Source: Macrostomum lignano
Lineage: Eukaryota
DNA length: 61,911 nt
Reading direction: 5' to 3'
NCBI GenBank assembly: GCA_002269645.1
Contig: NIVC01004067.1
Coordinates: 1 to 61,911 of the forward strand
The notes beneath the pieces were generated by a model. It was not told where the DNA came from and did not search any database. It saw nothing but the letters and a program-made list of their open reading frames with translations. Both the position numbers and the translations under genes were made by a program. This document shows positions 1 through 38,796 of the stretch, one piece after another. Numbering within the stretch: the first letter of the stretch is position 1; each line of letters opens with the position of its first letter.

Positions 1-2350
1 GGGTTGTAGGTAGACGTATATATTTGTTGTATGTTAAGCAGTTTTGCAGCCTGTTGAAATAGTTGTGAGGTGAACTGCGTTCCGTTGTCGGTGGTTAGAG
101 TCTTGGGCGTTCCATACATACAGACAATCTCGTTGTAGAACGCCATAGCTACTGTTTCGGCGGTAATGTTCGGCAGTGGAATTGCTACAGCGAATTTCGA
201 GAAGACGTCGAGAGCGGTGAGGATGTATGTGTAGTTGATCGAGTGTTGTCGTGCGGCAGGTAGTGGTCCCGAAATGTCGAGGGAGACGGTATCCCATGTT
301 GTTGTTTTCGGTACTGTTTGTAGTTGTGGCTTTTGGCGTCGTCCCGTTTTTGCGGCTGCGCATGAGTGGCATTCGTAGCAATATTTGCTGATGTCTTTGG
401 TCATTGTCGGCCAAAAGTAGAATTTTGTCACTCGTTCGATTGTCTTCTTAGCGGAAAGGTGTCCGGCTAATGGCATGTCGTGCAATTCTTGCAAGATAGC
501 GGCTCGAAACAAATATGGCAGATAGATTCGCGGAATATTGTCACAGATCCAATAAAGGATTGATTCTTTGAAGATTAGGTTGTCGCTCTGTTTTTTAAGG
601 AATTTTCTTTCTTGTTTTGTTAATTTGGCGTGCTTGGCGTCGTCGTTGTTTTGTGCGGCTTTGTAGAAGTTGTCGTCTTGCTGTGCCGTAATCAGTTCTT
701 GCATTTTCGGAATCGGATGGATAGCGTTGACTTCGTAAGCTCTGGAGAGTGCGTCTTGCTTTGTTGAGTGGTCCCGGTTTGTAGGCTAGTTGGAAGTTGT
801 AATCCTGAATTTTGAGTGTCATTCGGATGAGGCGGTTGTTAGTCTGTCCTTTCGTCATGACAATGTGTGTCAGCGGTGCATGGTCGGTTCTGAAAATTGT
901 CGGTAATGGAGAACCGTAGATGTAGTAGTGAAACTGTCGTAGTGCGAACAGGATTCCAAGTAATTCTCTTTCTGTGGCGGACCATTTGGTTTCGTTTAGT
1001 CGTAGAGCTCGACTGATGTAGACGATGGGTTTTTCGACTTGTCTTTCCGTTTCTTGCAGTAGAACTGCGCCTAGTCCACTTCCTGAGGCGTCGGTTTCAA
1101 TGATAAAGGGTTTTTGGAAGTTTGGATGTTGCAGTAAGGCGTCGGTCGTCAGTTGCTGTTTGATCTTTTCGAAGCTTTCTTGTTGTTCGTCCTTCCAGTT
1201 TTCTTCTTTCCACTTTGGTTGTTTGAGCAGTTCGTATAGCGGTTTGGCAGTTTTGGCAAAGTTTGGCAGAAACTTTCAGAAATACTGTGCTAGTCCTAGA
1301 AAGGACTGCAATTTTGTTATAGAGGTTGGTCGTGGGAATTTCTTTACTTTCTCCACATTACTTGGATCTGGTGAGATTCCTTTTGCGGATACGTGGTGTC
1401 CCAAGTATCGTACCGAGCTTCGGCAAAACTTGCACTTGGTGGGTTGTAGTTTGAGACTTTGTCGCCTGAGAAGGAATAATGCGAGTTCCATCATTTGAAG
1501 TAGTTGTTCGAAGTCTTCTCCGAAGGCAAGAATATCGTCTACATAGTGGAGTAGATTGGTACATCCAGCAAGCATGTAGGCTGTTAGTCAGCTCATTGTA
1601 GCAGGTGAGTTTGAAATTCCCATAGGACTTCTTTGGTAAGCGAAGACTTCTCCATTGTACGTCTTAAAGGCTGTGTATTGCTTAGACTCTTCTTCTAGTT
1701 CGATTTGCCAAAATCCATGTCGTAGATCAAAGACTGTGAAGAGTGTCGCTGTGTTGAGTCTCGCCATTAGTTCCGAAATCTTGGGTAGGCTTTGTTGATC
1801 TGTCGGGATATACTTGTTTAGGACTCGAAAATCGCAGACAAGTCTTCTCTCGTTTGTGTCCTTCTTCTCGACAAGCAAGCATGGAGAGGAATAGGCTGAA
1901 ACTGTCCTCTTGATGATACCGGCTTTGAGCATTTTCTCGATGATCTCGTCGAAGTGTTGTTGTAGATGTTTTGCAATCGGATACGGTTTGCACTGAATCG
2001 GTTCCTGGTGCGGCAGCAGTGTGATCTTCTGTTTGATGTCTTTGGCTCGTCCAATGTCGTAGTCGTGGTGGCAGAAAACATCGTTGTACTTCCATACAAG
2101 ATCTTTAACTTGGTTCTTTTGTTCTTCGGTGATCGGACTTTGTGACAGATCGATTTGTTCTAGGAATTGTTGCCTTGGCAATGTTGTCGATGTTGATTGA
2201 ATAAGCATCACTGACGCTTGTGTGCTGAGATGTCCGATGCAGGTTCCTGCGTAGATTCTCACTGGGTGCTTGTTAGGATTGACGATTTGTACCGGAATCG
2301 TTTTGTCGGCTGTGATTAGTACCAGTGCTGTGGGGATGAGGATTTCGTTG
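1..2350 (-). pseudogene. pol: Gypsy pol fragment (RT, RNase H, integrase), frameshifted; no protease motif found
   Basis: Translation across frameshifts gives IPVQIVNP..IYAGTCIG (post-protease linker); RT motifs SAYSSPCLLVEKK, RLVCDFRVLN, FDLRHGFWQI, HYVDD; RNase H motifs FIIETDASGSGLGAVL and RTDH; integrase motifs H..LAGH, C..C, SLDISGP, LTTDNGTQF. Confidence 0.92.
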
Positions 2351-4275
2351 TTCTATTAAACTTCAGTTGAAGATCCGACATTTCGTAGGTTTCATCAACA
2401 ATGGCTTGTGATTTCGAGATGTTCTTGATGTCTCCTGTTGGCGAAATTTGATGTAGTAGATCGTTCACGTTGAAATAGTTGGCCGAATTGGTACATGGTC
2501 GTGGAATGGCAGTTCCGACAATGATGTTGTGGACCGTATCCAAAAATCCTCGAATTCGCTTTCCATTGTAGAAGGCTTCGATCCGCGGTTTGTCGTAGCA
2601 AGTTGTTGACGTGTTTGATGACAAGATGTTAAAGTGATGGATCAGAGTACACTTGTAGATTAGCAAGTATCCATAAACCGGAACGGCGAGGAAATCTTCA
2701 ATTCCTGTGATCTTCCTGAAGGTGGTCGTAGGGTTGACGTAGTAGTTCTGTCGCGTGTAGTTTAGACTGGTCTCGTGCATTCGACATGTCAGTTTGACCA
2801 TGGAGCGATGCAGATAGTTCAGTTGCTTGTGCAGTTTGTGTTCCATCGCGGCTAGTTTTGCTGCCAGAAGTCGTGCTGATACTAACGAAGGCTTATCCAG
2901 GTTTCGCTTTTGTCTTTCCAAGGTTTCTTCTCTTGGATAGGTACCATTTATCACCTTCAAAAATACATTCTTGTCCATGTCCTTCAGTGCAATTGGTATT
3001 TCTTGGTCAGATAGGATTAGTTGTTCATTGTTTTCCTTGCATTTCAGTTGTGTATAGCTTGGTTGCTTTGGAAAGGTAAGAGCTAGATCTCCAGAGTCGG
3101 CAAGGAAGGTGTTAGATAGCAGTTTTCTTTGAACAGTATGGTATTTCTGTAGTTTGCAGTCAATTTCAGTTTTGACTTCCCATGCGATGAAGTATTTGCG
3201 AGTTCGACTCGGTTCTTTGTATCGAGAATCCGATCTGTACTCGATTTGGTATCGATAGTCATGGAAATAATTCGGAGCTAGCGGTAAGTTTTGAGCTTCC
3301 TCTTTGTTGTAGTTAGGAGTAGCACAATATCCTGAGCTGTAGTGGCATTGGTCAAGCGGTAGTTGCAAGGATTCCATGTTTTCGAAAGGATTGTGGTAGA
3401 ACAAGACGTTTAAAATCAGATAGCTGTTGTAGACAGTATACAGAGGCCATCGTGCTGCGTGGTAGTGCACATATCTTCCTTCGGCTACGTTGTTGGTGCG
3501 GAATAGTTGCGCTCCGCTTGCTGAAGTGTCGTGGAGCTTCAATTCACCGTCTTTGGAAAACAGGGTTTGGTTCCACTGCATGGAGGCTTTCTTCATGTGA
3601 TACCTTCATCGATGTTTGCCAATATCTGATTCGGTTCCATTGTACCAACCAAATCTTTTCGAGTTCGTCTTTGTCTCTAAAGCACAAAATTCCCATCTGT
3701 CGATGCTTCTTTGTATTCGCTTTGTAGATGTCGATTGTAAGCGGTAGCGGCTTTGTTTGATTCGTCTTAAAATAACTGCATTTGATTTCCGTAGGAATTT
3801 TGTAGATGACAGGCTGGATGGTAGCGTCTGTAGGACAAATCATTGGTACTGAAGTTGAAGTTACCAGTGGTAGCAGGATGAGAAGGATCATCGCAAATAA
3901 CCATTTCATTAGAGGGTGTCTCTTCTTGCTCTTCTTCGGCATCGGCATACTTTCTTCTTGTTCTCCTTTCTTGTTGGAGTGACTTGTGATCGTGGTTTCG
4001 TCCAGTTCCTCGTAGTCGTTTTCTGGTTCTTCAGATGGAGTGATGTCTTGTGGACGGAAGAACCATTTTCTTGAGTGTGGTACTGGTGTTAGAGGTTCCT
4101 GATACGCTGGTGGGTGACACGCTGTAGGGTGTCTTCGAAAGGTACCCATGAATTCTGGTCGAGTCGGCGTAGAAGAAGTCTGTTGATGCAGTTCTCCGAC
4201 ATTCATCGTAACGTAGGTGTTATCTTCTGTTTGAGTGAATCGATTGCATGTGAAGTGGAACGGTTGGGTGTTCAC
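2316..4275 (-). pseudogene. env: env-like class III fusion glycoprotein (herpesvirus gB/chuvirus G type), frameshifted near 3590 and C-terminally truncated
   Basis: Hydrophobic signal-like segment WLFAMILLILLPLVTSTS; Cys-rich ectodomain; furin-type RQKR; gB-like segments AAKLAAMEHKLHKQLNYLHRSMVKLTC, NPTTTFRKITGIEDFLAVPVYGYLLIYKC and CYDKPRI...GFLD. No C-terminal TM before the stop. Confidence 0.75.
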
Positions 4276-4343
4276 AGCTTTGTTTGTCCGTTTCCGTTTT
4301 CAGCATTAAGAATTGTAGCAAGATTCTCGTATTCCGGTTCGGA

Positions 4344-5430
4344 TTATTGTACCGTTGGAGATGATAACATGTAGTCGGTATCTTCAAAGAGAGTATCACG
4401 TACGTTGATACTGAAATCTGGTGTTAATTCTTCTACCGAAAATTTTGGTTCGATAGCCTGTTGTTCACTGGCCTGTGGTTCAATGGCCTGTGTGTACTGT
4501 CTATGCACCTGCGTTGGCTGCCTTGGTGGAGCGGGTCGGCGTGGGTTGTAAGGTACCATCGTATTGTTAGGGCGGTTATCCCGCCATGGTGGTGGTCGGT
4601 TATTCATCCGATTTCTGTTTGGTGGATATTGTTGGTTTGGATAGCGTGACCAGTTGTCTCGTCTGTTTCCACCGGAATAATTTCGTGGTTGATTCTGGCG
4701 CAAGTTTTGGCGGCAATCTCTGTAGTAATGACCTACTCTTCCACAATTGTGACAAGTAACGTTTCGAGGGTTGCTTTGCTGCGGGCGCATTGCAATTGCT
4801 GCGGCTTGGTGTTGTTGCATAAGTTTGCTTAATTGTTCTGCTAATTGTGCGGTGTCACTAGTGCGGTTAGCTAGAAGAGGTGCGCTTGCCTCCCACTGCA
4901 TTCCACAGCGGAGTAACTGTTCTTCTGTCTCAATTGTTTCTCGCAGGAGTCTATCTCGCAAGGCAGGTTGAGCGTTGTTAATGACATTAAGAATTAGACT
5001 TTGCTTTTGATCTGCAAGCCGTTGTCTTTCTCTAGCAGCTGCTTCTGCTGGTCCAAGGGTTGAGCTGCTGCTGCTGGTTGCGGTTGCTGTTGATGCAAGG
5101 CTTTGATGATTTGTCGAATATCATCGACAAAGGTGAGGAATGATTCCGTGGGTGTCATTTTCCGGTTATGTAATTTATGTAACAACACCGATCGATTGGT
5201 TCCGCATCGTGCGAACTGTGTTCGAAGTTGGGTAATCATGGCATGGTAATCTCGTTGTGTAACTGCATCTAATTTTCCATAAATTTCTCGGGCTGTGCCT
5301 TGTAGCAATGGAGGGAGGAGTAGCGCCTTTTCTGGATTTTGTAATCCATATTCCCTTGATACCAAATCAAAGTGGTCAATGAAGGTCGCAAAATCTTTGT
5401 CCATAGTGTAAGATACGACTGTCTCTTCTT
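4344..5430 (-). pseudogene. gag: Gypsy gag (capsid region + one CCHC zinc knuckle), frameshifted near 4990
   Basis: FIDHFDLVSREYGL..EKALLLPPLLQGTAREIY capsid pattern; CHNCGRVGHYYRDC knuckle. Confidence 0.85.
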
Positions 5431-5569
5431 TGTCTCTCTTCTTGTCTATGACCTCTCTTCTCTCTCTCTCTCTACCTCTCTCTTTATCGATTTTCCTCCC
5501 CAGCGTTATCGCCTTTAAATATTTTGACGGCAATTCGGGCAAATAAACTATACTCGAATATGAGTACTT

Positions 5570-5603
5570 CCCTGACGAAGAGTAACCTTACTCGAAATAT
5601 CGG
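5570..5603 (+). ncRNA. Minimal type I hammerhead ribozyme motif (Penelope-type)
   Basis: CC-CTGACGA(5572-5578)-A-GAGTA/ACCT/TACTC stem II-GAAA-TA-TC^GG. Complete catalytic core, palindromic ATAT helix III, 2-bp helix I. Predicted cleavage after 5601. Confidence 0.7.
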
Positions 5604-5689
5604 TAACATTAACTATTTCGAAGTAAATTGACTTTTATCAGTCCTTTCACCGTGTCAGCGCCTGGGATTGGATGTGCGTTCCTCTCTCT

Positions 5690-6039
<350 letters not shown>

Positions 6040-6610
6040 TTCGCCTCATTCCAATCAACTTGCAGAAGCTGAATGCTTTGAAATCTTAAAATAATACGAG
6101 TAGTTCTTTCGAATGAGTCAATGCTCTTGCACCGCTTCAACTGTAATCAGGTATTGATTTTCTGTTTTTCTTGACTTAAACTACTCGTCTTTGCATTTTT
6201 GCTCTCTGTCTCAGACCAAGGGACTTAGCTGAGGCGGCAGTTTGCATTCGAATTGCACATTTACTGCCAGTAGCTCCGCGGCCCAAAGCTCGTTGCAATT
6301 AATGTACAGTTGGTTTAGACAGAAGCCTCTTACATGTAAGTCGTTTCCCTTTATAAATTTACAAGGAAATTCTTTCCTCACAAAGCATTACTAATAAATA
6401 ATACAATTTATTAACTTCTGGCGATTTGTGATTGCTTCCCTTTAATGCTCAATGGTACAGTGCTTGTTTTAGGGATTTTTAATACGCCATCATAACTGCA
6501 CTCTTCCCCTCAAGCAGCTTCTCAATTCATGACAATTTGGCACATTGTATTATTCTCGAGCCTACTAGATATGCATACTGAATAGAATACACTTGGACTG
6601 GCAATTAGCG

Positions 6611-10222: not shown

Positions 10223-10320
10223 ATTAAAGGCGCCACGAATGCAACGGGATTGATTTGGTTGCTAGGGACGCTAAGAATAATAGCACGAGAGACAATTCTG
10301 GTTGCTAGGGACGCCACGAT

Positions 10321-10762
10321 TGTTGTGAGCCCCGTCCTCCGGAGCAACGCCTACAGCTTTAACCTGTCGGGAAGCTGCGACCCCCAGGTCCCCAGTCAGA
10401 GCTCCCGTCCCGCGCCCTAGGGAGAAGCAGAAAAAGGACAGTAACTCGCGAACACGAACTTACACACCGTAGCCGATGCAGTTCGCCGTGCACTTTTTAT
10501 GGTAGATCGACGAGTCGTTAATAGCCAACGGAGGCGGACCAACGCGCGCAAGGGAGGAGTCTGCCCTCCAGACAGCGAATATATATTTTTCATTGGTCCT
10601 ACGCGTACATGAATATAACTTAAGAACAAATGTACGGTACAGCAGGGGAGGTGGGGCGGGGTGGCGTGATCGGCGTACGCATTGATTATTGATTGGAGGG
10701 GTGGGGCAGACTGGAGGGTTGGGGCGGGGCAGGAGGGCGAGAAAGGGCACGATTGCACAACA
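10321..10762 (-). repeat. 3' LTR of Gypsy element
   Basis: Matches 16918-17359 with 3 substitutions found by eye; TG...CA termini. Confidence 0.97.
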
Positions 10763-10775
10763 TCCTCCCCTCCTT
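10763..10775 (-). promoter_or_regulatory. Polypurine tract (AAGGAGGGGAGGA)
   Basis: Purine run directly abutting the 3' LTR on the minus strand. Confidence 0.9.
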
Positions 10776-11996
10776 AAAAAAGGCGAGTCACAAGAACAAA
10801 GACTGAATGGAGACAAAGACAGGATTCGATGAGTTGGACAGATACGACGGCGCAATGAGGATAAACGCGAATAATTTATAGCACGACAACGACATTTATG
10901 ACGAACAGTCTTAGCGTTAGCAACATTCGAATAATGAAACACGAGTTTGACGCATATGAAAAATGTACGAGTGTTGAGAAAACGCATTTTGGACGATAAA
11001 TGTTAGAGAAATAAACGCGAAAAATAAAAAAAGCAAGAACTTCAGTGTGACAACCGCAACGAAACGAAAAAATTGCACCACTGTCTACCGATGTTACTTT
11101 AACTTCGAAGAATTTCTTGCGACATGAACGTAAAGCAACAGTTTAATAATGTCAAATTGTCAATTGAAAAAAAACATGAACCAAAAAGCATGATGAAAAA
11201 TACACTAAAATGAAGTAAATCAGGCCGAATGGGCTGCGCCGGACTCCTGCTCGACTCCAACACGACGGACACCCGACGATTCGCGAGCCGACTCGACGAT
11301 TGGCACTCTGGCACCCGAAGTCGCTTGCTGACGCCGAAAACCGGTGATGTCGCTGAGGCCCTGGTCATCGCTGTCTGCCACCGTGGCTGCTGAACCTCCT
11401 TCGTTGGGCTGCACATGCCTCGCCAGCAGAAGTCCTTGTACCGCGACTCTCGGTCGTACTGGAGATGTCCTGAGCGTTGTCACTGGCGCCGCTGATGTCT
11501 GCTGGAGCTTGCCTGACATCACCGCGATCCCGTCGACTTGTGCCAACCAGCCTCCGGCCGACTTGCTGACGCCGCATCCGCATCTCCCGCGCCGGTTCAC
11601 TGTTCTCACGCTGGACGGATCCGTGGGTGCAGTCAGCTGCGCAGTGCCGCCTCCTGCCGGTACTTGATGCTCGACTCCTTGCCCTGGGTGTCCTTTGAGC
11701 CTGGCTTTCCCCACAACTCCCGAGGAACGAGCCGAGAAACCCCAACATGGGAACAGGGAGTGCAGCTTCCCGAGCAGGTGCCACCCACCGCTAAGCTCTC
11801 CAGCAAAGGCAAACCGATCTAGCCCGACTACTTCTGAACTAAACTAATACTAACTATAAAAAGCGTACTGTAATTGAACTGCTTGTTTACTGTAAGCATG
11901 TACTTTATTAGCAAATGTTGTTTTTTCGTTGTTTTTGTGCTGTTTTGTATTTTTTTGGATTTTAACAATTTTTATTGATAGTTTGAATGCTTGGAA

Positions 11997-14900
11997 CTAG
12001 TACAGTACTGGGTCGCCGTAGCGAGCAGGCGGATTGTTTCTCCTAGGCCGAAGCCTGCGTGGCGAAGCCGGAGATGCTGCAGCGTGAACCGGTTGGTCCT
12101 GCGGCGCTTGGATGTCTTGATGCACCGCCGCTGGCACATAGACAAACTGTGAGTCATCTCCATCCGAGTCGGGCTCCGACTCTTGCGGCTCTTCGCTCAC
12201 AACAACAACAGCACGTTGCCCCTTCCGTTTTCTGCGGCTTTGCTTCGGCGGTCTTGAAGCCTGCAGCTCAACGGGACGTTGAGGCACTTTGCGAAGGTTG
12301 TTATAGTGCACCACCCTGCTTTTCCTACTGTTCTGATGGAGAATTCTGAAGTTAATGTCTGACAGCTTTTCTACCACCTCGGCTGGGCCCTTCCAATAAT
12401 TGTGAAATTTTGCCGCTTCGTTCGGCTGCAGGGCCGGCGAATATTCGAGTACCGAATCTCCTACTTCTATCGTCGGACCTCTCTAACCCTTGAGTCGTAT
12501 ATGATTTTCTGTTTTCGCTGGTAATGTTGCAGATTCTGCCTTACATGTGAATGTGCCTCCGCGAGCCTGTGCCCCAGAGACAACAGGTACTCCGGTGCAT
12601 CAGCCGGTACTGCTTCCGGCAGGTTCCCAATATCGACTGGAAGGCGCATTTCTTTTGCGTACAACATGTAGTACGGAGTGTACCCAGTGCCACGATGGAC
12701 ACTACTGCGGTAGGCGAGAAGTGATGGAGCGATCAGCTCCTCCCAATCACTCTCAGCCTCACTCTGCCGGCATTTTATCATATTTTTTAGCGTTTTGTTA
12801 AAGCTTTCTGCCTGGCCATCGGCCATGGGATGATAGGCCGTTGTTCGGCATTTTTTAACAGCCATCAGCTGACACAGCTGCTTTACCAGCAATGACTCAA
12901 AGTTGGTGCCTTTGTCCGTCACAAGGAACTCGGGGCAACCAAACTGCGCTATCCAATTGTCGAAGATGGCCTTTGCCACCGTGCTCGCACGCTGATTTGA
13001 AAGTGCCACCGCAACTGGCCACTTAGTGAACGAGTCCTGGATGGTCAAAATGAATCTGGACCCATTCCTAGATCGCGGCAATGGCCCGACGATGTCGCAC
13101 ATTATTCGCTGAAACGGAGCTTCTGACAGAATCGGGTGCAGCGGAGCTCGATTGGCCTGGCCTGGTTTTGACCGGGCACAATGCACACAGCTCTTGCAGT
13201 ACTCCTCGATCTTTCTTGAAATTCCAGGCCACCAAAATCTAGCCTTCACCTTCTCCTGGGTCTTTTTTATCCCTAGGTGACCACCTGTGACTCCGTCATG
13301 CAACTCACTGAAGACCTTCTGAAACAAGCTCGGCGGCAAGATAATTTTCGGAACCTCAGACCCAGGACCTTGAAAAACCAGAACCTGCGCATCAAGCCTG
13401 ATCAGCTGACGCTGAGACCACAGACACCTCTCCTCCCAGCACATCACCTGCGGTGGAGTTGACGCGTCGACATGATCTGTCAAGAAATTATTGATGATCT
13501 TCAGCTTTGGCTCTGCTTCTTGAGCTGACTGTATATCTTCCTTCTGTAGCACACTCCGAAATATCGCATTGACACCATTGCTGCGCTGAGCCGGTGCGCA
13601 ACTAGGACAAGTCTCATGCCCTGTGGGCCTTCGGTATTTCCGAGACAAAGAGTCTGCGTTGCCGTGATGTTTCCCGGCCCGGTGTTCTATAACAAAGTCA
13701 TAGTTCTGCAGTGTTTCCAGCCATCGAGCACATTGACCCTCAACATCACGGATGCTGGCGAGCCACTGCAGGGCTTTGTGATCAGATCTCACAGTGAATT
13801 TTTTCCCGAGTAGATAGTACCGGTACTTTTTGATAAAGTGCACAATTGCCAACAGCTCGAAACGGGTGGTGCAGTAGTTTTTCTCGCTTGCCTGGATCAT
13901 TCGAGATCCATAGGCTATCACCTTCTCAGACCCGTCCGACTGGCGCTGTGACAGCACCGCACCAAGCCCAATTCGAGAGCTGGCATCCGTGTCAAGAATA
14001 AACTCACCAGCGTTTGGCGAGAAGTCTGGAAAAGCCATAACGCTTGGCGAACACAGAGCCGCTTTCAGACTGTTGAACGACTGCTCTTGGGCTGGGCCCC
14101 ATTTGAACTCGGCATCGTTCGCTACAAGTCTGTAGAGCGGAGCGGCAATCTCGGAAAAATTTGGAATGAAAGCTTTGTAGTAGACGCACAGTCCGAGAAA
14201 CGATTGGACTTTGGCCACACTGCAAGGCCTGGGCCAGTCCTGGATTTCGGCACACTTTTCTGGGTTCGTCGCTATTTCATCCTTGGAGATCACGTGACCT
14301 AAGAAGCTAATCTTTTCGGCCAGAAAGACACATTTTGCTGGCTTCAGCTTGATGTTAGCTCTTCTAAGACATTGAAACACATGCTCAAGGCGTTCGAAGT
14401 GCTGCTGCACAGTCGTGGAGAAGACAACTATGTCGTCGAAGTAGACGAGGCATTCCTTCCAGTTGACTTCTGACAGTGCCATGGACATGAGTCTCGTAAA
14501 GGTTGACGGGGCGTTTTTGAGCCCGAAACTCATGCACTTCCACGCAAACTGTCCCCGATTCGGCACCACGAAAGCGGTCTTTAACTGGTCTTTCGACTCC
14601 AGTGGGCACTGATGGTACCCGGATGCCAGGTCCATCGTGGAAAAGATGCAGTTTCCCCCGAGCGCATCAAGAGTCTCATCCATTCTGGGCGGAGGCAGAG
14701 GATCAGGCACGGTCACGCTGTTCAGGCGCCTGTAATCCAGACACATTCTGAGACTGCCATCCGACTTTCTAACCGGAACCACTGGGCTCGACCAGGGTGA
14801 CTGACAGGGATAGATGCGGCCTTCAGCCAGCAGTTGATCAACCTGTTTATCAACCTCACTTCTCCAGTGCGGCGGGATTCTGCGCAAGGGTTCAGTCACG

Positions 14901-15890
14901 GGCTTCGCGTTACCCGTGTCGATTTCGTGTGCCATCAGATTCGTGAGCCCGAGTTCAGAGCTGTCTTTGGCAAAGACGTCACGATTTTTGGCAACCAGGG
15001 AAACAAACTCTCTTGCCTCTGCGTCTGATAGGCCGCAGGCACCCCACTCTTTGACTTCGCTGAGGGGACTCCACAGCTCTCCTTCTGACTGGACGGCATT
15101 CAGCTGCAGCTCCGCTGGCTGCTGCGCAGAGACCGGCGAAAACCAGCCAACTCGAGTGCCCCGCCTCATCGACAAACTGCACTCCGACGTGTTCAGAATC
15201 CTGACAGACAACTGACCCTCTTGATCAGGCAACTGCACCGATCTGGCCAGAAAATGATCACCTGCTGCCCGACGCTCGGACTCCACCATTCCAGGAAACT
15301 GAAATCCCCTCACCCCGCGTCTCTGAAGGCGGACTGGGACCAGCTTCTCCTCACCGGCATCCATCCGGACAGCCTGGCGCAGCACGATGCGGCACACAAG
15401 AGGTCTGTCAGCACACAAACTGAAAGGAAAGACACACGATTCTGTCTGCAGGCAGTGTCTAGCGAAATCAATTATCATGCAATGTCTAATGAAAAAATCG
15501 GTTCCTAAAATGCATGGCTGTGAAATTTCATCGACAACTAAAAATTCGTGCTCGAATTTCGTCTCACCAATCGAAAAAGTCAGATTAATTCGGCCTAAAA
15601 TTTGAATAGGCTCACCACTCGCTGTGTAAATTGAAAAATCAGTACTACAATTCTGAATTTTGTTCTTAATTTTGCGGATTCTAAGAAACGACTACTAAGT
15701 AATGACACTGTGGACCCGCTGTCCAGCAAACAAGCAACCAAGGGCCCAGATTCAAACTTTGCGTCAATATAACCCAGTCCAGTTCCACCCAGCACACTCT
15801 GGATCTGGGTTGTGGGCCCTGGCGCTTCTTCAATCACTGCAGACGGGGCCCGGGACGCTGGCCTGGCCGGGCCCCCATCCCGTTTCCCTG
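11997..15890 (-). CDS. pol: Gypsy Pol (protease, RT, RNase H, integrase with GPY/F tail); two small frameshifts near 15677 and 12482
   Basis: LLDSGSTVS protease continues in another frame as ..CILGTDFF; RT YFDD; RNase H ILDTDAS; integrase HHCC, DIVGP, TDKGTNF, AESFN; WKGPAEVVEKLSDINFRI lies after a further frameshift. Confidence 0.93.
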
Positions 15891-16793
15891 ACTCTGAGTA
15901 GCCTGCTGACTCTGGCACCTGGAACGAGTGTGGCCCTGCTGGCCGCAGGCAAGGCAAACTACTCGATTCCTACAGTCCGCCGTTGAGTGCCCCATCTGAA
16001 GACACCTCCTACAGGTTCTGCCCGCCTGAGGCGCGGCTGCCGGCTGCTGCGGATTCGGCTGCACCGCCGAGGCCGACGCCCCTCCTTGCTTCAGCTGCGC
16101 GATCTCTGCCTTCAAGCTGTCGATCTCCGCAGCCATGCGAGCTGTCTGACTGTCCGCTGCAGCAGCTGCCGCCTGACTGTTCACCACGTAAACTGATCGC
16201 TTTCCCTCCAGCAGCTTCATCGATGCGAGAGTCTGGCGCACTCGCTGGATCGCGGCCTGCAGCGTGTCAGGGTCTTGCAGCAAGACATTCTCAAGCACCC
16301 TGTCCGGAACTCGAATCCCCTTTAAGAATCGGTCTTTTGCTAGCTCATCCCTTTGCTCCCCTGGCAGAGCCGGATATGCCTTACGCATGAGCTCCCTGAG
16401 AGCGTCAGCGTAATCCTCTAGTGCTTCCCCCTCTCTCTGACTCCTGTTTTGAAATTCTGTCTTGTAGTCCTGGGGTGTGCGATTCTGACTGAAGCGAGCC
16501 TCCAGCTGCTCCACAAACTCTACGTAGTCCAAGTCATCATCCAGCTCGAGATTGGCCACTGCTTTAAAAGCCGTGCCAAAGTCCAACAGACTCAGCAAAT
16601 TCTGCTTCCGCTGATCCTCAGGGATCTGAGCAGCCTCGCAGTACGTGGAGAACTGTTGCAACCACAAAGCAAAATCTTGAGTCGGCACATACTTATTAGG
16701 ACGTGGAACGCGCTGGCCCACGTTTAACTGCTCCTGGATTCTCGCTGTCAAAGCACCGATAAGATCGTCTAAATTGGCCATGATCGCTTGCAC
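15834..16793 (-). CDS. gag: Gypsy Gag, intact ORF (319 aa from a non-ATG start; first ATG at 16781), two CCHC knuckles
   Basis: Capsid pattern FALWLQQFSTYCEAA; CRRCLQMGHSTADC and CLACGQQGHTRSRC. Confidence 0.93.
   Translation of the reverse strand: MQAIMANLDDLIGALTARIQEQLNVGQRVPRPNKYVPTQDFALWLQQFSTYCEAAQIPEDQRKQNLLSLLDFGTAFKAVANLELDDDLDYVEFVEQLEARFSQNRTPQDYKTEFQNRSQREGEALEDYADALRELMRKAYPALPGEQRDELAKDRFLKGIRVPDRVLENVLLQDPDTLQAAIQRVRQTLASMKLLEGKRSVYVVNSQAAAAAADSQTARMAAEIDSLKAEIAQLKQGGASASAVQPNPQQPAAAPQAGRTCRRCLQMGHSTADCRNRVVCLACGQQGHTRSRCQSQQATQSQGNGMGARPGQRPGPRLQ
15845..15888 (-). promoter_or_regulatory. Programmed -1 ribosomal frameshift signal (G GGA AAC + 9-bp GC stem)
   Basis: The heptamer at 15888-15882 is in the gag frame and its -1 frame is the protease frame. 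GGGGCCCGG/CCGGGCCCC hairpin starts 6 nt downstream. Confidence 0.8.
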
Positions 16794-16896
16794 AAAACTA
16801 ATTCTAACGCAAAACTAACTCCAACGCACTAAATCACAAATTCAATAATGCACTACCCCAGACAACAGACAGAAATCTAACGGGAACCCTAACTGG

Positions 16897-16915
16897 AATC
16901 CTGGTCACGGCACCA
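16897..16915 (-). promoter_or_regulatory. Primer-binding site, tRNA-His type (TGGTGCCGTGACCAGGATT)
   Basis: Begins with TGG 2 nt inside the 5' LTR; complementary to a tRNA-His-like 3' end (...GTCACGGCACCA). Confidence 0.8.
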
Positions 16916-16917
16916 GT

Positions 16918-17359
16918 TGTTGTGAGCCCCGTCCTCCAGAGCAACGCCTACAGCTTTAACCTGTCGGGAAGCTGCGACCCCCAGGTCCCCAGTCAGAGCT
17001 CCCGTCCCGCGCCCTAGGGAGAAGCAGAAAAAGGACAGTAACTCGCGAACACGAACTTACACACCGTAGCCGATGCAGTTCGCCGTGCACTTTTTATGGT
17101 AGATCGACGATTCGTTAATAGCCAACGGAGGCGGACCAACGCGCGCAAGGGAGGAGTCTGCCCTCCAGACAGCGACTATATATTTTTCATTGGTCCTACG
17201 CGTACATGAATATAACTTAAGAACAAATGTACGGTACAGCAGGGGAGGTGGGGCGGGGTGGCGTGATCGGCGTACGCATTGATTATTGATTGGAGGGGTG
17301 GGGCAGACTGGAGGGTTGGGGCGGGGCAGGAGGGCGAGAAAGGGCACGATTGCACAACA
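16918..17359 (-). repeat. 5' LTR of Gypsy element
   Basis: Second LTR copy, adjacent to the PBS. Confidence 0.97.
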
Positions 17360-18479: not shown

Positions 18480-19413
18480 ATGCATTCTCTGCTAATCATC
18501 TGCGCTGTCATGACAACTGCTGTGGCCGCAGACTCCGGCTGGGAGATCCACAGAGGCGACCTCGCCGAGTACCGGGTGCTGGCGGTGAAGCTGGCCATCA
18601 GCGACATTCACTGTACAATGGTTGCTGAGAACGCGGATGCCGTCCGCTTTGACGCGGCCTCGGGCTCCTGCTCGCTGCTGGCCTGCGATCGGGGAGCGAT
18701 GGACGCCTGCAGGAAGTGCCGCCACGCCAGCGACTCCAGCCTGCCTCAGCTGTGGGTGAGTGAGCTGGGCTTTGCTTTGCGGCTTCTGCACTTTTTACAA
18801 CCGCTTCAATATGCGTGCACGAAATCGCCCATTGCAGATGAGGAAGCCGGTGAAGTGCTGGACGACCTTCCAGCACAGAGTCGACGGCTCCGTCAGCTTC
18901 AACCAGAACTGGGCGGACTACGCGAGCGGATTCGGTCAGGGCGAGAGTCTCAACTACTGGATGGGACTGGAGCAGCTCCACCAGCTCACCGCCACTGGAG
19001 TGTGTAGAGTTCGCTGGGAGTTCAGCGACTGGAACGGCACCTGGTACTGGGCTGAGAATGCTCCGTTCTCTGTTGGCCCAACGAGCGACAAGTACAGGTG
19101 TTCGATGGGACCTCTGGACGCGAGCAGGTCGAGTGTCGGACAGCTTCCTGATACGAACTACTCTCCAAAAAACTGGCAGTTCAGCACTCCAGACTTCGAC
19201 AATGACAACTGGAGTGGAGACAGCTGCGCACAACACCGGTCCGCTGGGTGGTGGTACGGCGTGTGCGCATTCATGGAGCCGAACGGAGTCTACCAGGAGT
19301 ATCCCAATATTAACACACAGGGAATCTATTACTTTCTTCATGCATCTGGATCTGCTAGCGCACTTGTTTTGTCGTACTCGATGAAGAAGTTTGAGTGCCT
19401 GATTTTCAACTGA
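18480..19413 (+). CDS. Secreted PAN/apple-like + fibrinogen C-terminal domain (FReD) protein; exons 18480-18755 and 18838-19413; about 283 aa
   Basis: Signal peptide MHSLLIICAVMTTAVAA; phase-0 intron TGG|GTGAGT...TTGCAG|ATG (82 nt); FReD motifs FQHRVDGSVSFNQNWADYASGFG, YWMGLEQLH, FSTPDFDNDN, GWWY..C. Confidence 0.85.
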
Positions 19414-25869: not shown

Positions 25870-28800
25870 ATGCAGAACTTGGGGCCGCAACTCGGAGCGA
25901 TAGGAGGCTCTCTGAGCAGCACCTGCCTTTGCGTCAAAGGCCTGAGTCCCGATAGCAGCGACCTCACTATTCGGCAACTGATGACTCAGGAAGCTGGAGT
26001 TCCCGATCACGCCATCGTGTATTCTCAGGCTATTTTAGACAAAACCACCGGCCATTGTAGAGGTTTGATTCCATTATATTATGTTTATGCTATTTTATTG
26101 TTGAATGCATTTATGTTTACTCCTAAGACCATCCGCTAAACCCTAACCGACACCAGGCCTCGGCTTCGTTGAGTTTCAAAACGAGTCGCAGGCCAACCAG
26201 GCTTTGGAGGCGATTCAGCGGCGGCCAGTGCAGGGCGATAGACGCTTGCAAATCGGATTCGCTCTTGTGAGTGCTAGTGTCATACGTCAGCAAACATTTT
26301 CGTAGGGAAGTCCACAAAATATGAAAGTAAAGCTTATAGTTAAATCATTTTTAATGGCTATTCAATCTAAACAGGAGAACGAGAAGGATCTTACTAGCGT
26401 GTACTTGTGGAATTTGCCGGTGTCGTGCAGCGATTATTGGATTCGACAGGTCCTTGTCAATAGCCTCATCATGAACAGAAAGATTACTCAGCCGATTAAG
26501 TCCGTCAAGGCCCTTCCAGCCAATCCAAAGTACTCAATCGGATTCATTCGCTTCGGAGAAGAGAGCGATGCAGCAGCAGCGATTGAGTTCTTTATCAGAA
26601 ACGGTCTCGAGTTCAGCTATCGGTTCGGATGCTCGGACCGGCTTGCGGCTAGACTGGCAGACAAAGCAAGCCCCAGAGCAAGGCTTGATCAGATCGCTCG
26701 GCTGTCTGCCAATCAGCGAGGGTCTATGAATGATGGCCGGTCAATGAGCTTTGAGGACATCGTAAAGCCGAATCCGGTTCTCTCTGTGAGTCAACTCGAT
26801 CTGCTGAATTTTAACTACAACTATAGAACGAATCGATTTAATCCTATTGTCTGACAGGGGAAGGCTTTGCAGAGCGATTCAAAAGCAGCAAAGTGCGTAC
26901 ATCATTGTGCTATGTGAAACACAGAAACAATCGCTTTAAAGCCCAGACAGGAAGTTAGAAAACAGATGCTGTGTTCCCTTATCCGTCGTACCAAGTAACG
27001 TTGCTTTGTCACTAGGATACTCGAATGTACTCGTATATGATGCATTGTGCTTTTCTTTATCAATTCACCTATATGTACTTTATTCAACTTTATTTTACCG
27101 ATTATCCGAATTTAATTACTTTTTACATCAGGAAATCTCTGCGGAGCCACTCCAGCTAAAGGACGCTGAGAGCCCCTTCAAGTGGAATGCTCACGAAGGC
27201 TCACTAAGAACTCCAGAGGATGTAATTCGCAAACTGTCTGAAAAACTTAAGCTGGAGCCGATGCTATCCGCAGCGTATGGAGGTCTGCTTGCTGCTTACC
27301 ATTCTGCTGCTTCTCCAAGCCGCAAACTGATTGATTTTAGCAAGGCAAGAAAGCACCTGAAGGATGCAATAGAAGCTGCCAATAGTGCCCATCAACATCA
27401 CGTTAGGTGCGACTTTGTCCTGGAGGCCATCTCTCTTCATCTGGATCAACAACAAAAGAAAACGTCTCCTGAGTTCGATGAACGCGTAAAGGCTCTGGGT
27501 CAGGCTTGGAACGTTCCAGATAATGCACAGCGAATCGAAGTCAGAGCCAATGCATTTCACGTCAAGGCACTGGCACTGTTTAACCAAGGGATAGAGAAAT
27601 ACGTCCAGGCAGAGGAAGCTGTTAGGACCAGCTTGAGCTTGCGACCCGACAATTTTATGTGCGTCTACCTGCTGGCGTACATTTTAGCGCGCTTGCGCAG
27701 ATACCGCAAAAACAGGGCTGCTGCGGGTCCAGAAGAGCTGCTCCTGTGGAAGCGGAGCGAGGAGCTCGCTAACTTGCAGAACCTGGACGATGCGCCCAAA
27801 GAAATTCGGCTGTATTACCAGCAGTTTTTAATTAACTATTCAGAGGCACTTTTGAATAACGCTGACCTAAAGGAAAAGTGCCAAAGCTTGGCTTCTGAAA
27901 CGTTCCTGGCATTAAAGAACCTGAACGCAGAAGATTTAGAATGCCACTACCGAATCGCTCTCAAATGTGAAAAAGTGTTTCGAATTCTCAAATTGCAATT
28001 GAATGACACTCAAACCCCACGAAGCATCTTACTCAGCCTAAAAGATGTAACAAAAAACTCTCAGTTATTTTTTTCATTGGCAAAACTGATGGAAAATGAA
28101 TCTGACTATGAAGAGTATGAGAGTTTGCTCGTCCGAGCTCAGCAGGTGGCGCCCGAGCCTGGACACATTTGGGTAGACGTGTGTTTGCAGGAATACCGAG
28201 AGGAAAGACCGAATGATTTCACTCACGAGTTTATTTTGGACGAGTTTGATACGAGGATAGCCAAATACAAGGATAATGTTAGAAACAAGTCTGCAATTCA
28301 GTATGCCAAGGGAGCCTACATGTGTCGGCGGCAGCTCGTTGACAGCGGCTTTGAGTCGATGGTCGAAGCAGTTCAAGTGTGTCCTGATGTCAGAGTTTAC
28401 TTTCCTCCTTGGAAAAAAGAAAAAATATTGCAAATTCTATGCGAACGGACAGAAAGACCCGAACTGGAGGCTTGGTTCAGGCTGCACATCATGAACTGGG
28501 ATCTTCAATCTACACAAATTATTTTCGAACGCTTTCAGAAGGCGCTGCAAAGTGAAAACTCGGATCACCAGCTGGTGTACGAGCATCTTGGTCTGTTATA
28601 CCTTCGCCTTCAAGACTTCAAAGCTGCCAAAGAAAACTTCCAAAAACTTCAGTCTGAAAATCCTCGTAAAAACTCTCTGCTGTCGTCCGCTTTGCTCAAA
28701 CGTGCCGAATCGAGAGATGAAGCTGAAAAGAGAGACTTGATTGTCGAGGCTCTCCGACTTGGAAACCCGGAGGCTTGCAAGCCCGCTCAACACTTGCTGG

Positions 28801-29690
28801 ACAACCGACGGGATCATCAGCGGCGGTTCCCTCTAGAAGCCATCAAGCAGAAGTACTGTCCTGAGCACCCCGACAGACCAGTGCAGATCGTGCCGTGGCT
28901 GTTCAGCAATGACTCGTACGAGCTGCTCGCTCTGATCAGCATCGCGTCACAGGAGGACTATGAAAACTACACAGAAACGTCGCCTCTGGTCCAGACGGAT
29001 CTGCAGAAATAGAGACTGGCTCTGGAGCGAGTAGAGCAGCTCGGGAAACAGACTGAGAACGATTATTATAATGCCATCATGGAAACCCTGAAACTCGCAA
29101 AAAGTGCAATGGATGGATTAACTGCAAAACTGGATGGCTCCGAAATGGACAAGAAACTTGATTACTTCCCATACGGCTTCCGGTATATGAATGTAAAAAA
29201 GGATGAGACAAAAAAGTTGATTTGCGGATTACAGAAACAAAGCCACGAAAATCGAAGAACGGAGATTAACAAGAAACTTTCAAATTTGCTCAAGTTGAAG
29301 GCATCCGCCACTGATGAAGCGAATCAGAGAGTAAATGCGCTCGTTGATTTGCTGAGCACTCGAGAATCAAAAGCGTTTCAGTTCCAGCAGCCATTTGCTT
29401 GGCTTGTGATCTGGCAGGAGTTGAGAAACAAAGCGGAGCACTCGAGCGCACAGAAGCCCATGAAGACTTTGATTCCAGAGTTATTGGAGGCCTGGAACTG
29501 CGACCCAGATTGTGCTGGAAGCGTCGCGCACATGGCTGCGGAGTTCGCTGAGGAGACACGACTGATATTCGAGGCCGAGACTGAGGCGCTTCGAGCAGCC
29601 ACTGGTAAGACCGGAGTACCAGTAGAAGATTTGAACTCAGCCCAGTCGAGACCCACCAAGAAGTTTTTGGCTTTGCATCTTTCTGACTGA
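25870..29690 (+). CDS. RRM-RRM-TPR-like protein, paralogue A; exons 25870-26062, 26157-26266, 26375-26785, 27132-29690; in-frame TAG at 29010-29012
   Basis: All three introns are GT-AG, phase-consistent and shared with paralogue B. RNP2 CLCVKGL and RNP1 RGLGFVEF; second RRM VYLWNLP...IGFIRF; helical repeats such as YEHLGLLYLRLQDFKAAKENFQKL. Confidence 0.8.
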
Positions 29691-34417: not shown

Positions 34418-37400
34418 TCACTTAGTAATTGCTTTTTGAAGCTCCTCAGTCTCGGCCTCGAATATCAGTCGTGTCTCCTCAGCGAACTCCGCAGCCATGT
34501 GCGCAACGCTTCCAGCACAATCTGGGTCGCAGTTCCAGGCCTCCAATAACTCTGGAATCAAGGTCTTCATGGGCTTCTGTGCGCTCGAGTGCTCCGCTTT
34601 ATTTCTCAACTCCTGCCAAATTACAAGCCAAGCAAATGGCTGCTGGAACTGAAACGCTTTTGATTCTCGAGCGCTCAGCAAATCAACGAGCGCATTTACT
34701 CTCTGATTCGCTTCGTCAGTGGCGGATGCCTTCAACTTGAGCAAATTTGAAAGCCTCTTTTTGATCTCTTCTCGTCGTTTTTTGTGCGTTAATTGTTTCT
34801 TTAATGCGCAGATTTTGTTATCAGTGTCCGGCCCTTTTATAAAGCTGAAGCCGTATGGGAAGTAATCAAGTTTCTTGTCCATTTCGTAGCCATCCAGTTT
34901 TGCAGTTAATCCATCCATTGCACTTTTTGCGAGTTTCAGGGTTTCCATGATGGCATTATAATACTTGCTTTCAGTCTGTTTCCCGCGCTGCTCTAGACGC
35001 TCCAGAGCCAGTCTCGATTTCCGCAGATCCGTCTGGACCAGAGGCGACGTTTTTGAGTAGTTTTCATAGTTCTTCTCTGACGCGATGCTGATCAGAGCGA
35101 GCAGCTCGTACGAGTCCTTGCTGAACAGCCACGGCACGATCTGCATCTCACTCTCGGGGTCTTTAGGACAGTACTTCTGCTTGATGGCTTCTAGAGGGAA
35201 CCGCAGCTGATGATCCAGTCGGTTGTCCAGCAAGAGTCGAGCGGGCTGGCACGCCTCCGGGTTTCCAAGTCGGAGAGCCTCGACAATCAAGTCTCTCTTT
35301 TCAGCTTCATCTCTCGATTCGGCACGTTTGAGCAAAGCGGACGACAGCAGAGAGTTTCTGCGAGGATTTTCAGACTGAAGTTTTCGGAAATTTTCTTCTG
35401 AAGCTTGAAAGTCTCGAAGGCGAAAGTATAACAGACCAAGATGCTCGTACACCAGCTGGTGATTCGAGTTTTCACTATTTAAGGCTTCGGTATAGAGCTG
35501 AACAATTCTCTGTGGTTCATCTGACTGCAAGTCAAGGTCCAGCATATGCTGTTTAAACCAAGCCTCGAATTCGCATCTGTCAGTCTTCTGGCTCAGATTT
35601 TTTAGCGTCTCATCTTTTTTCGATTTATGGATATGAACTCGAACCTCAGGATAGACCTGCACCGCTTTGACCATTTCTTCAAAACCATCAGCAACCCTCT
35701 CTGTTTCAGAAAATGTCATCATAAAGGCTCCCTTCGAGTACAGACAAACGGCTTCGTACCTGGGATAATCCTGATGATATCTTTCAGCGAGAGTGTCATA
35801 CTCATTCAAAATATCGACGGCCGAAAACTTGTCGCTTCTTTTTTGTTTGAAGTTTTAATAATAAATATCAACCCAAATGTGTCCAGGCTCATAAGACAAC
35901 TCTTGGGCCCTTATCAGCAGCTCTTCGCACCTTTCATCTTCTTTTTTCTCTTCAGCCAACATCGCTAATCTGAAAAGCAGATCAGAATTTTTAGTATCCT
36001 TCTCTAGGCGTTGCAATATTTCCTGGAGTTCCTGCGTTTCTGGATGCTTGCGAATCCGAAAGATTTTTTCACACCTGAAGACAATTCGGTAATGTTCATC
36101 CAATACCTGAGTACTTATGTTTCTCAATGCTTGGTACGTGGCATTCGTGAGTTCCAGGCACTTGTCTTCTAAGCTCCGGTTGTTCAAAATAGCCTCCGCA
36201 TAGTTTATTAAAAACTGATAGAAGTACATTTTTGTTCCTTCATTCTTATCCTGCCACCGGTGTTCATTTGCCAGATCATATGCACGATTCCACAGGAACA
36301 ACTCCTCCGCATCAGCAGGCGTCCTGTTGTTGTGATGGCGACGCACTCGCGCACGAATATACGCCAGCAGGTAGATGCACATGAAGTTATCCGGTCGCAA
36401 GCTCAGACTTGATTTCACAGCTTCCTCTGCCTCATCGTACTTTTTTATGCCTTGGTGAAAAAAGTCCAGAGCTTTAACGTGAAAAACGTTGGCTCTGATC
36501 TCGATGCGCTTGGCCTCATCTTGAGTGTTCCAGATCTTGTTGAGGGCCTTGACGTGTTCAGTGAAGTTGAGTTGGTTCCGGCTCTGCTTAGCATCCAGGT
36601 TTAACTCAATGGCTTGCAAGACGAATTCGCATCTGACATGACCTTCATCTGCGTCTTTGCCATAGTCTACTGCGCTCTTCAAGTATTCCCTTGACTTTCT
36701 GAAGTCGATATGCTTACGCCGATTGAATCTGGTTCCGTGATAAGCAGCCAGGAGGCCATGATAAGCCGATGAGAGCATTGGCTCAAGTTTCAGTCGGTCC
36801 AAAATTGTGTCGATCACATCCTCTATATTTTTGTCGGAGCCATCGTATGCGCACCATTTGAATGGGTTTTCGGCGTCTTTCAGTTCGAGTGGTTTCTTTG
36901 TGATTTCCTGAAATGAATTTCAGAATGAATGATCCGAGTCAATTGTTGAACAGTCAGTTAAGGTTTTGATTAATTATCCTTTTGAGAAATTCTCTTTAAG
37001 TAGAGTATGCTGTCTAATATTAGGAGAAAGACGAATCGCTCCGGCCCTTTTAGCGTGACTTTAACAATATACATAGCAATAGTAATATGCTATAGTCTTC
37101 TCAATTGTCATATCAATGCTTTAACGAGCTACTACTCAGCATTATTCCCCTCAGTGCCACTCTGCATCATTCTCCTACTGTATTAACCTCCAGACTTTGC
37201 AAGTATCGAATGAGATAAGCGATAAGGATTCAAAGAACCACAGCAGCATCTCAGCTGACAGCAGCTGCAAGTTGCATTTACATGTACTCGTATTTTGTAA
37301 GCTTGGTCCGTTCGTACTATTAGTATGAGGCGATATTAGAGCATTTATATCTTAATACGAGCCATGTAGAGCATATCACTAGTCTGGTGTAGGGTAAAAC

Positions 37401-38796
37401 CGAGGCTTGCTTGACTTAGCCTGCAGAATAGGTTTGATGCAATCAAAAGGCTAAACGGTGTCCTTTTAGACTCGCTTTACTTAGGCAGCTACCCACCTCC
37501 AACCCTAATTACAATTGGGTAGTACAGCCATGAGGAAACTTACAAGAAGATGCGCGCTCGGCTTCACAATATCTTCAAGGCAGACTGGTCGACCACCGAC
37601 ATCACGGGTCTTTTTTTCAGAAAATTTAGCAGCAAGTCGCCCAGAGCATCCATATTTGTGGGAGAGCCTTAGCCCATTGTGATTGATGAGTTGGATAACA
37701 CGTGAAGCCGTGAACTCCGTTTTAAATTTCACAAGGCCTGTTGAATAATATGGGTTAGCACGAAAAGTCCTGAATGACAAGATCGCATCCTCGCGACAAT
37801 TGCATTCGTATAGTAGAAACTGTCTAATCCCCTCCATCGTGCAGTTGACAGGCAAATTCCATACGAACATCTCTTTGCCGTCCTTTTCTGCCTCCTGTAT
37901 TTTGTACACGGTGGGTGCTCGGCATTGCATTTGAAATGCTGCGCTATCAGAAAGTTTGATGTCTAATAAAAAATATCGAAGACTCACCCGAGCGAATTCG
38001 ACCTTCAATTGTCCCTGGCTGGCATGTTTCGTGGCTTGCAGCTGCTGAATATTTCTTACTGCCATCTTCGCCCGCTCTGCGTTTCGAAATTCAGCGAAGC
38101 CGGTCCCTAAATGTGAGTGAAAGTTCTTGTTCACTTTTCTTGCTCTTCGACCACAGTTTCTTTGTTTTGAAGCCTTATTTTTTTGGTTTGAAATTGAGTA
38201 CTAGTAGTTCACTATCGTACGAGTATCATTTATCATGATCTATTATAGTAATTACGTAGGTACTCACAATTAAATATTTTAAATTTTCATCACTAATTCA
38301 GGGGTTGCAGCCCAGTGGTCAGCGCGTCGGACTCACGACTGAAAGGTCGGGGTTCGATTCTCGACTCATTCGGAACAATTTGTGTCCTTGAGCAAGACAC
38401 TTAAAACTCTGCATTGATTCAGTTCACCCAGCTGTAAAATGGGTGTCAGCATTACCTGGGGTAATTGAGGGTGTCGGGTTTGCCGGTTGCGTATTAAATT
38501 ATATATATATTATTACAATCGCAAACTAATGCACTTGGCATACTTTGCATGATAAAACAGACTACATAAGAAATTGAAATCGCACCTTTACACTGGCCAG
38601 ATTGCGAATCCAAGATGGTTTGAGCAAACACTATGGAGTGATCAGGAACTCCGGCTTCGTGCGCAATGAGCTGCCGAATTTTCAGATCGGTTGTGCCGGG
38701 AGACAAGCCCCGGATGAAGATTCGGGTGCTGGACATGCGACTGTTACTGCTGGAGTCACTGGTGGGCACGCTGGCGGCGGACGATGAAGCTTGCAT
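34418..38796 (-). CDS. RRM-RRM-TPR-like protein, paralogue B; exons 38796-38586, 38106-37988, 37894-37544, 36907-34418; in-frame TAA at 35857-35855
   Basis: Same intron positions and phases (1,0,0) as paralogue A; RIFIRGL / GTGFAEF RRM1; MFVWNLP RRM2; exon 4 is co-linear with A. Confidence 0.8.
38301..38495 (+). mobile_element. tRNA-derived SINE with CORE-like domain, inside intron 1 of paralogue B
   Basis: A-box-like GCAGCCCAGTGG, B box GGTTCGATTC, then TGTGTCCTTGAGCAAGACACTTAA...CAGTTCACCCAGCTGTAAAATGGG, which resembles the MIR/CORE consensus. Confidence 0.8.

Follow-up and report, generated by a model that had tools for sequence, protein, structure and literature searches.

Elements that combine a Ty3/gypsy pol with a viral fusogen are the closest described systems to the locus reported here. 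In a recent survey, the errantiviruses of nematodes, bryozoans, and flatworms carry only envelope (env) genes of the herpes simplex virus (HSV)/glycoprotein B (gB) type, in the order GAG-ENV-POL, with the ectodomain sometimes lying between two membrane segments (Chary & Hayashi, eLife 2026, PMC13524379). The same source lists nine flatworm elements, one of them from Macrostomum lignano (Mlig_errantivirus_2, with 16 copies and 863-nt long terminal repeats, LTRs), counts 51 ENV-POL env frames in the M. lignano genome, and cites the nematode endogenous retroviruses (ERVs) of Sacco et al. (2022) as placing ENV before POL; the terms "polyprotein," "fused," and "single ORF" (open reading frame) do not occur in its main text. 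No paper on envelope-bearing LTR elements of Macrostomum was found in a literature search. The stretch of DNA analyzed here (the window) comprises 61,911 nt of M. lignano contig NIVC01004067.1. Very probably, an LTR retroelement of the Ty3/gypsy group and GAG-ENV-POL type, with an env that encodes a class III fusogen of the gB type, is present on its minus strand as a decayed genomic copy.

The env gene is located between a gag with one CCHC zinc knuckle and Pfam-assigned reverse transcriptase (RT), RNase H, and integrase domains; the element thus has a gag, a gB-type env, and a gypsy pol in the order that operationally defines GAG-ENV-POL elements of the HSV/gB type in PMC13524379. Reference proteins are the M. 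lignano polyproteins P0061 (Mlig001469g3), P0053 (ALD16272), and P0005 (Mlig009479), and P0003, a 54%-identical Gag-Env relative. All features of the element are on the minus strand. The gag capsid part (5093..5437) is 68% identical to P0003 residues 16–126; homology ends at ~5437, and a CT/AG microsatellite stands in place of the gag start. Upstream of it, a possible 5′ LTR remnant with uncertain borders lies at 5541..5630, where contigs end at 5572 and 5612; these loose ends resemble what we take to be a primer-site-like start and a purine run on the element strand. A second gag frame (4305..5054; 40% identical to P0003 residues 138–384) contains the zinc knuckle at 4757–4707 (PF00098, E = 9.3e-5), and is followed by a Gag-Env linker with a basic cluster at its end (3904..4299), placed by alignment to the continuous Gag-Env protein P0003. 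On the other side of env are an RT and RNase H of Ty3/gypsy type (745..2349; PF00078, PF17919, PF17917; 77% identical to P0053) and an integrase with zinc finger and core (3..755; PF17921, PF00665; 67% identical to P0053) that is cut by the window edge, so that the region past the integrase, with the 3′ end of the element, lies outside the window. The best PDB matches of the pol region are Ty3 RT (E = 5.5e-63) and then foamy-type RT (2.8e-44); to our knowledge, solved Bel/Pao RTs are probably lacking from the PDB. The Pao peptidase family had no match in the element, and gag gave only a weak match to DUF1759 (E = 0.013).

The env ORFs consist of a 429-codon open stretch (3605–2319) and an upstream piece in another frame (4299–3547). 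The original prediction, made from the DNA letters, placed a gB-type envelope protein at 2316..3930. An env is indeed present there, but neither boundary holds: env homology stops at 2349, the final ~10 codons to the stop at 2316 being pol DNA in the wrong frame, and no gene starts at 3930, since in relatives the frame runs on from gag. The predicted motifs are all found in the order given. They begin with a hydrophobic stretch at 3847..3903 (Kyte-Doolittle 2.17), followed by a predicted furin-type site, RQKR (2904..2915), before the central helix. An NP motif at 2735 runs through Y.C at 2657–2651, and CYDKP at 2600, GFLD at 2549, and PC at 2498, then YF, complete the series. The long helix said to end in cysteine is predicted at 2876–2736, but its Cys (2786) is inside the helix rather than at its end. 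The frame change that had been suspected near 3590 is located at 3580..3593, within env domain I, by comparison with P0003 and P0061. It separates an N-terminal ectodomain piece holding the start of domain I (3580..3846; 55% identical to P0061) from the main piece (2349..3593), which has 8 Cys and 6 N-glycan sequons and covers the remainder of domain I as well as domains II, III, and IV. An aromatic hairpin tip at ~3651–3634, a putative fusion loop 1, corresponds to the hairpin of strands 49–69 and 72–82 in the P0003 model; the putative second fusion loop is modeled there as coil. A Tyr-rich insert of ~35 residues at the end of domain I (P0001 residues ~100–137; window ~3308–3197) is common to the window, P0003, and P0061, is missing in nematode and bryozoan relatives, and has low confidence in both structure models.

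The assignment of the fold is carried by profile and structure comparisons. A profile of the env piece with 42 relatives, drawn from 1.84 billion representative proteins, matches residues 437–585 (domains III–IV) of Epstein-Barr virus (EBV) gB at E = 1.9e-12; herpes gB accounts for 16 of the 59 rows in the match list, including all of the top ten, and most others are Gag matches from the flanks. The AlphaFold model of the main piece (predicted local distance difference test, pLDDT, 73.5; predicted template modeling score, pTM, 0.41) shows the furin site followed by a 47-residue helix, and all 40 of the matches listed by Foldseek against the PDB are herpes gB. This helix (2736..2876; model residues 244–290, block pLDDT 76–96) falls within the EBV profile match and corresponds to gB domain III, while the region at 2376..2816 (model residues 264–410) aligns with the solved domain IV construct of pseudorabies virus (PRV) gB (5ys2; Z 6.5, root-mean-square deviation, rmsd, 4.1, 138 residues aligned). 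The gB domain borders used for mapping are those we take to be standard, except for domain IV, which is named in the PDB title. Because the window's domain I is split by the frameshift, its comparison was made on the natural relative P0003, in which long beta hairpins on a PH-like fold align with HSV gB residues 156–362 (Z 8.7, rmsd 4.2, 141 aligned). The top 5 VIA rows for this domain are all gB (Z 8.0–8.7, rmsd 3.6–4.2, 134–141 aligned), as are all 35 of the matches listed by Foldseek; other class III proteins score lower (rabies G, Z 6.0; Chandipura G, 5.7; gp64, 4.4). Rhabdovirus G and gp64 are missing from the profile match list and fall below gB in the structure ranking, though both may yet be distant kin of the env. 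Together, these alignments and models support a class III, gB-type fold, with a predicted domain III helix followed by the domain IV crown; the gB-type call and the domain III–IV mapping of the original prediction are thereby borne out, the proposed profile and Foldseek comparisons having returned gB matches.

"gB-type" denotes a fold here, not a donor, because nyamivirus-type glycoproteins rank slightly above herpes gB among predicted viral structures: G of Beihai rhabdo-like virus 3 (2.0e-12) and of Midway nyavirus (1.6e-11) precede the first herpes gB (9.6e-10). There is roughly an even chance that the env is better termed a nyamivirus/chuvirus-type G, a glycoprotein captured from a negative-strand RNA virus, which would give it the same fold but another donor and leave the identification of the element unchanged. 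PF24664 (Monjiviricetes_fusion) is assigned both by Pfam (E = 1.9e-4 for the main piece, under the cut-off) and by the Atlas (0.90, low recognition), and capture of an RNA-virus glycoprotein is named in the title of Sacco et al. 2022 (PMID 35550022). However, at 10–15% identity the E-values are nearly alike, and the same list mixes entomopoxvirus with herpes proteins.

Conservation among the relatives is consistent with a common framework. In the alignment A1 (43 rows including the query), C274, R297, C319, and C336 are conserved in 42/42 rows with a residue at the position, C371 in 38/38, and P292 in 41/42; the two furin arginines are kept in 39/40 and 39/41. All 8 Cys of the main piece are conserved in every row with a residue (38–42 rows) and probably form a disulfide framework. 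None of 100,000 shuffles matched the pattern of the motif chain, a weak support since that pattern was derived from the window env and matches no other stored protein. A scan of IMG/VR with the env piece gave 4 pattern matches, 0 of them confirmed. The nearest named relatives are M. lignano proteins: P0061 is 55–63% identical in env and 77% in RT, and P0005 is more distant (env 27–33%, RT 37%), identities which indicate that the window, P0061, and P0005 belong to distinct families. Databases label P0061, P0053, and P0005 only as hypothetical or retrovirus-related proteins. No source description was found for ALD16272; in PMC4604429, no passage deals with LTRs, gypsy, retroviruses, or polyproteins. 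P0005 also has, at residues ~1000–1200, a Thr/Pro-rich, mucin-like insert of ~200 residues between two furin-like sites, which is missing in the window family. The tree called for in the original prediction was built for the relatives, with 35 rows retained and 18 removed (12 for short coverage, 6 as near-duplicates); known viral fusogens were left out of it, and it therefore shows neither the donor nor the direction of a transfer. The window joins M. lignano P0061 at 100/99, separate from nematode and bryozoan rows, on a short terminal branch (0.15); P0005 and P0006 are on long branches.

The position of env between gag and pol recurs in these relatives, in single proteins. P0003 has Gag and Env in one continuous frame; P0005 runs from Gag through Env and from protease to integrase in a single protein of 2852 residues; P0061 and P0053 have a collinear Env-protease-RT-RNase H-integrase and retain the anchor, the protease, and open frames. 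Among the 42 env matches, 19 have an upstream CCHC knuckle in the same protein, 13 a downstream protease motif, and 10 both, while a downstream membrane segment is present in 20 of the 21 that extend 200 residues or more past the match. As judged from these protein sequences, the gag-env-pol order is native to this kind of element. The nematode ERVs that Sacco and colleagues described in J Gen Virol in 2022 are likewise said to have a continuous gag-env-pro-pol frame, with a nyamivirus-like env. Because relatives encode Gag-Env-protease-Pol as one protein, the signal-like stretch of the original prediction, though present at 3903–3847, is an internal segment, not an N-terminal start, and is best described as the internal signal or first membrane segment of Env, with equivalents between Gag and Env in P0003, P0004, and P0005.

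Both this layout and a large deletion had been overlooked in the original prediction. The window copy has four frameshifts (near 5056, 4296, 3590, and 756), two in-frame RT stops (1588–1590 and 1276–1278), and one deletion, with its junction at 2346..2352. Residues 552 and 910 of P0061 and 126 and 484 of P0053 all map to 2349, so that relative to both proteins ~357 codons are missing, namely those for the aspartic protease and, within Env, for domain V, the membrane anchor, and the tail; the P0061 anchor (632–650) and protease (745–842) fall inside the gap. The domain V arm and C-terminal anchor are present in P0061, P0053, and P0005, and relatives have the aspartic protease before RT; no protease motif was found in any minus frame of 1–5700. 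The missing anchor and domain V lower the gB-type claim for the window copy, not for the family. Contigs from four runs of four studies were compared with the window. Those of three runs span the env frameshift near 3590 without a gap, and it is accordingly real; a programmed frameshift was rejected, as relatives read through this site in one frame. Most of the contig depth does not share the breaks near 756, 5056, and 1276, and part of it shares that near 4296, so that these may be copy-specific or assembly slips. With env frameshifted, the anchor lost, and the protease gone, the window copy cannot make a working envelope. The potentially infectious lineage of the original prediction thus cannot rest on this copy; such a lineage is plausible, to judge from sequence, for sister families with open frames (P0061, P0005).

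Several observations weigh against the identification as a GAG-ENV-POL element with a gB-type env. The single env sequence had no match in the PDB and its Pfam match is under the cut-off, and the link to gB therefore runs via the relatives and an alignment-fed model. Whole-model TM-scores are only ~0.3 (rmsd 25–37), since the model leaves the relative placement of its domains undefined, and the Z of 6.5 for domain IV is inside the range that the tool calls common. A trimer prediction for residues 236–416, run without an alignment and with the fold uncertain (score 0.01), weighs neither for nor against. Some relatives are gene models able to bridge frameshifts, and P0004 plainly joins unrelated pieces. 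Finally, no contig piece crosses 2349 among the 32 of 393 pieces listed, and the deletion could be an assembly join.

It is possible, though doubtful, that a near-intact, still mobile sister copy of the same family lies elsewhere in the genome, the window copy having arisen from it by deletion. Over env, a second contig class, ~10% divergent and with roughly a third of the depth, has 31 differences at 2761–3021 and 23 at 3846–4085; a 940-nt contig in run X11, with 30 differences, extends past the microsatellite; and in three runs a joint of 2346 to 2407 (the intervening sequence is not known), at second-class depth, coincides exactly with the deletion site, which hints weakly at a copy of another build. 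M. lignano also has open Env-Pol frames of the sister family P0061. Against such a copy, the RT and env searches, each with length limits, found no protein more than 77% identical, none of the runs lists an indel near 3590, and contigs cannot phase copies.

If a member of the family had been spared the deletion, its working can be outlined. Intact members would make one polyprotein, in which the hydrophobic segment after Gag would thread the Env ectodomain into the endoplasmic reticulum, where it would probably be cut by signal peptidase. A second segment would anchor Env and return protease-RT-integrase to the cytosol, where Gag and Pol would be released by the protease. Budded particles would bear trimers of glycosylated Env cut by furin, and membrane fusion by these, in the manner of gB, would let the element spread between cells and reach the germline. 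These steps are modeled on established polyprotein topology and class III fusion; the window copy can perform none of them. That an undeleted member is still active in the worm, forming enveloped particles from a single Gag-Env-protease-Pol polyprotein, is improbable. If it were so, Gag, Env, and Pol would be made one-to-one, with signal-peptidase processing like that of an alphavirus or flavivirus structural polyprotein, gB would fuse without gH/gL, and passage would occur between somatic stem cells and the germline; stand-alone gB fusion and retroelement cell-to-cell spread outside insects would be directly observable in a laboratory flatworm.

Domestication of the anchorless ectodomain, which the host would then secrete, for instance as a decoy that blocks a receptor, is very unlikely. 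The 429-codon env stretch is open while pol has stops, and the window branch in the env tree is short; however, the signal segment lies on the other side of the frameshift, which is real in three runs, gag has lost its start, and pol pieces of 226–261 codons are likewise open. Equally remote, and largely refuted, is an accidental gag-env-pol order, in which the protease of a gypsy element gave way to an inserted free viral glycoprotein gene or env of another element: the Env-RT border at 2349 is abrupt and the protease missing, but P0003, P0005, P0061, and others have this order too, in a single frame, and there the gap is occupied by anchor and protease.

The remainder of the window contains further repeats and genes. 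A TGTC microsatellite (~5700–6040) lies between the gB-type element and a 34-bp tandem satellite (6458–~10100; ~107 overlapping near-identical registers) just upstream of that element. A second, young gypsy element occupies 10320–17216 on the minus strand. Its direct repeats, which begin at 10320 and 16917, are 99% identical; its gag has 326 codons and is PNMA-like (PF14893, E = 7.5e-8), and its open pol has 1074 codons; ~1.4 kb past its integrase is without explanation, and tblastn with the env of the first element found no env match in it. An RT fragment at 44863–45915 (+; RVT_1, E = 3.4e-9) is presumably Penelope-like. Other genes include one with a fibrinogen C-terminal domain at 18760–19410 (+; PF00147, E = 1.3e-34) and an 823-codon ORF at 53371–55839 (+) with four KY-like immunoglobulin domains (PF23265, E = 1.2e-41), resembling kyphoscoliosis peptidase. 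Two related TPR-like genes form an inverted pair at 26306–29687 (+) and 34421–38200 (−), with arms 73–93% alike; each is preceded by a short ORF, the two ORFs being alike and one having a weak RRM match, so that the pair looks like a duplicated two-gene unit.

Compared with known systems, the env shares the folds of domain I, the central helix, and domain IV, in the same order, with herpesvirus gB (EBV 3fvc/9oal, HSV-1 2gum, PRV 5ys2), from which it differs in its 9–16% identity and its origin in a retroelement polyprotein; no gH/gL or gD gene was seen in the element. Elements of this type pose the question of how gB acts without partner glycoproteins and of passage from cell to cell, which the window copy, a fossil, cannot answer. 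Drosophila gypsy and ZAM (ICTV genus Errantivirus) are likewise Ty3/gypsy elements with a fusogen gene, but theirs is an F-type env in a third ORF after pol, whereas the window env is class III and before pol. Given this order and an env that is not F-type, the element is not a Drosophila-type errantivirus; the "errantivirus-like" of the original prediction applies in the loose sense of any env-carrying Ty3/gypsy element, as used in PMC13524379, and not for the strict genus. With the nematode ERVs the window copy shares ENV before POL, and Meloidogyne and Ditylenchus proteins are among the env matches, but these form a separate env clade at about 24% identity. P0061, P0053, and P0005 are collinear with the window copy in the order Env-protease-RT-RNase H-integrase and, unlike it, keep the anchor, protease, and open frames.

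The closest correspondence is with the elements of PMC13524379. They share with the window copy a Ty3/gypsy pol, an env between gag and pol, and a gB-type fold, and their ectodomain flanked by two hydrophobic segments is a layout also seen in the window's relatives; the window copy differs in being broken and would fail the paper's intactness filter. The comparison with Mlig_errantivirus_2 is by description, and the window copy lacks its listed primer-site 12-mer (5 matches at two mismatches vs. 3.97 expected, 0 of them upstream of gag). Flatworm gB-type GAG-ENV-POL elements, M. lignano included, are thus already published (PMC13524379), and the window copy is a further, decayed member. It adds independent sequence confirming gB-type fusogens within the Gag-Env-Pol polyprotein of flatworm gypsy elements, and at least three such families near Macrostomum (the window, P0061, and P0005), as compared with the one M. 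lignano element listed in the survey (PMC13524379).

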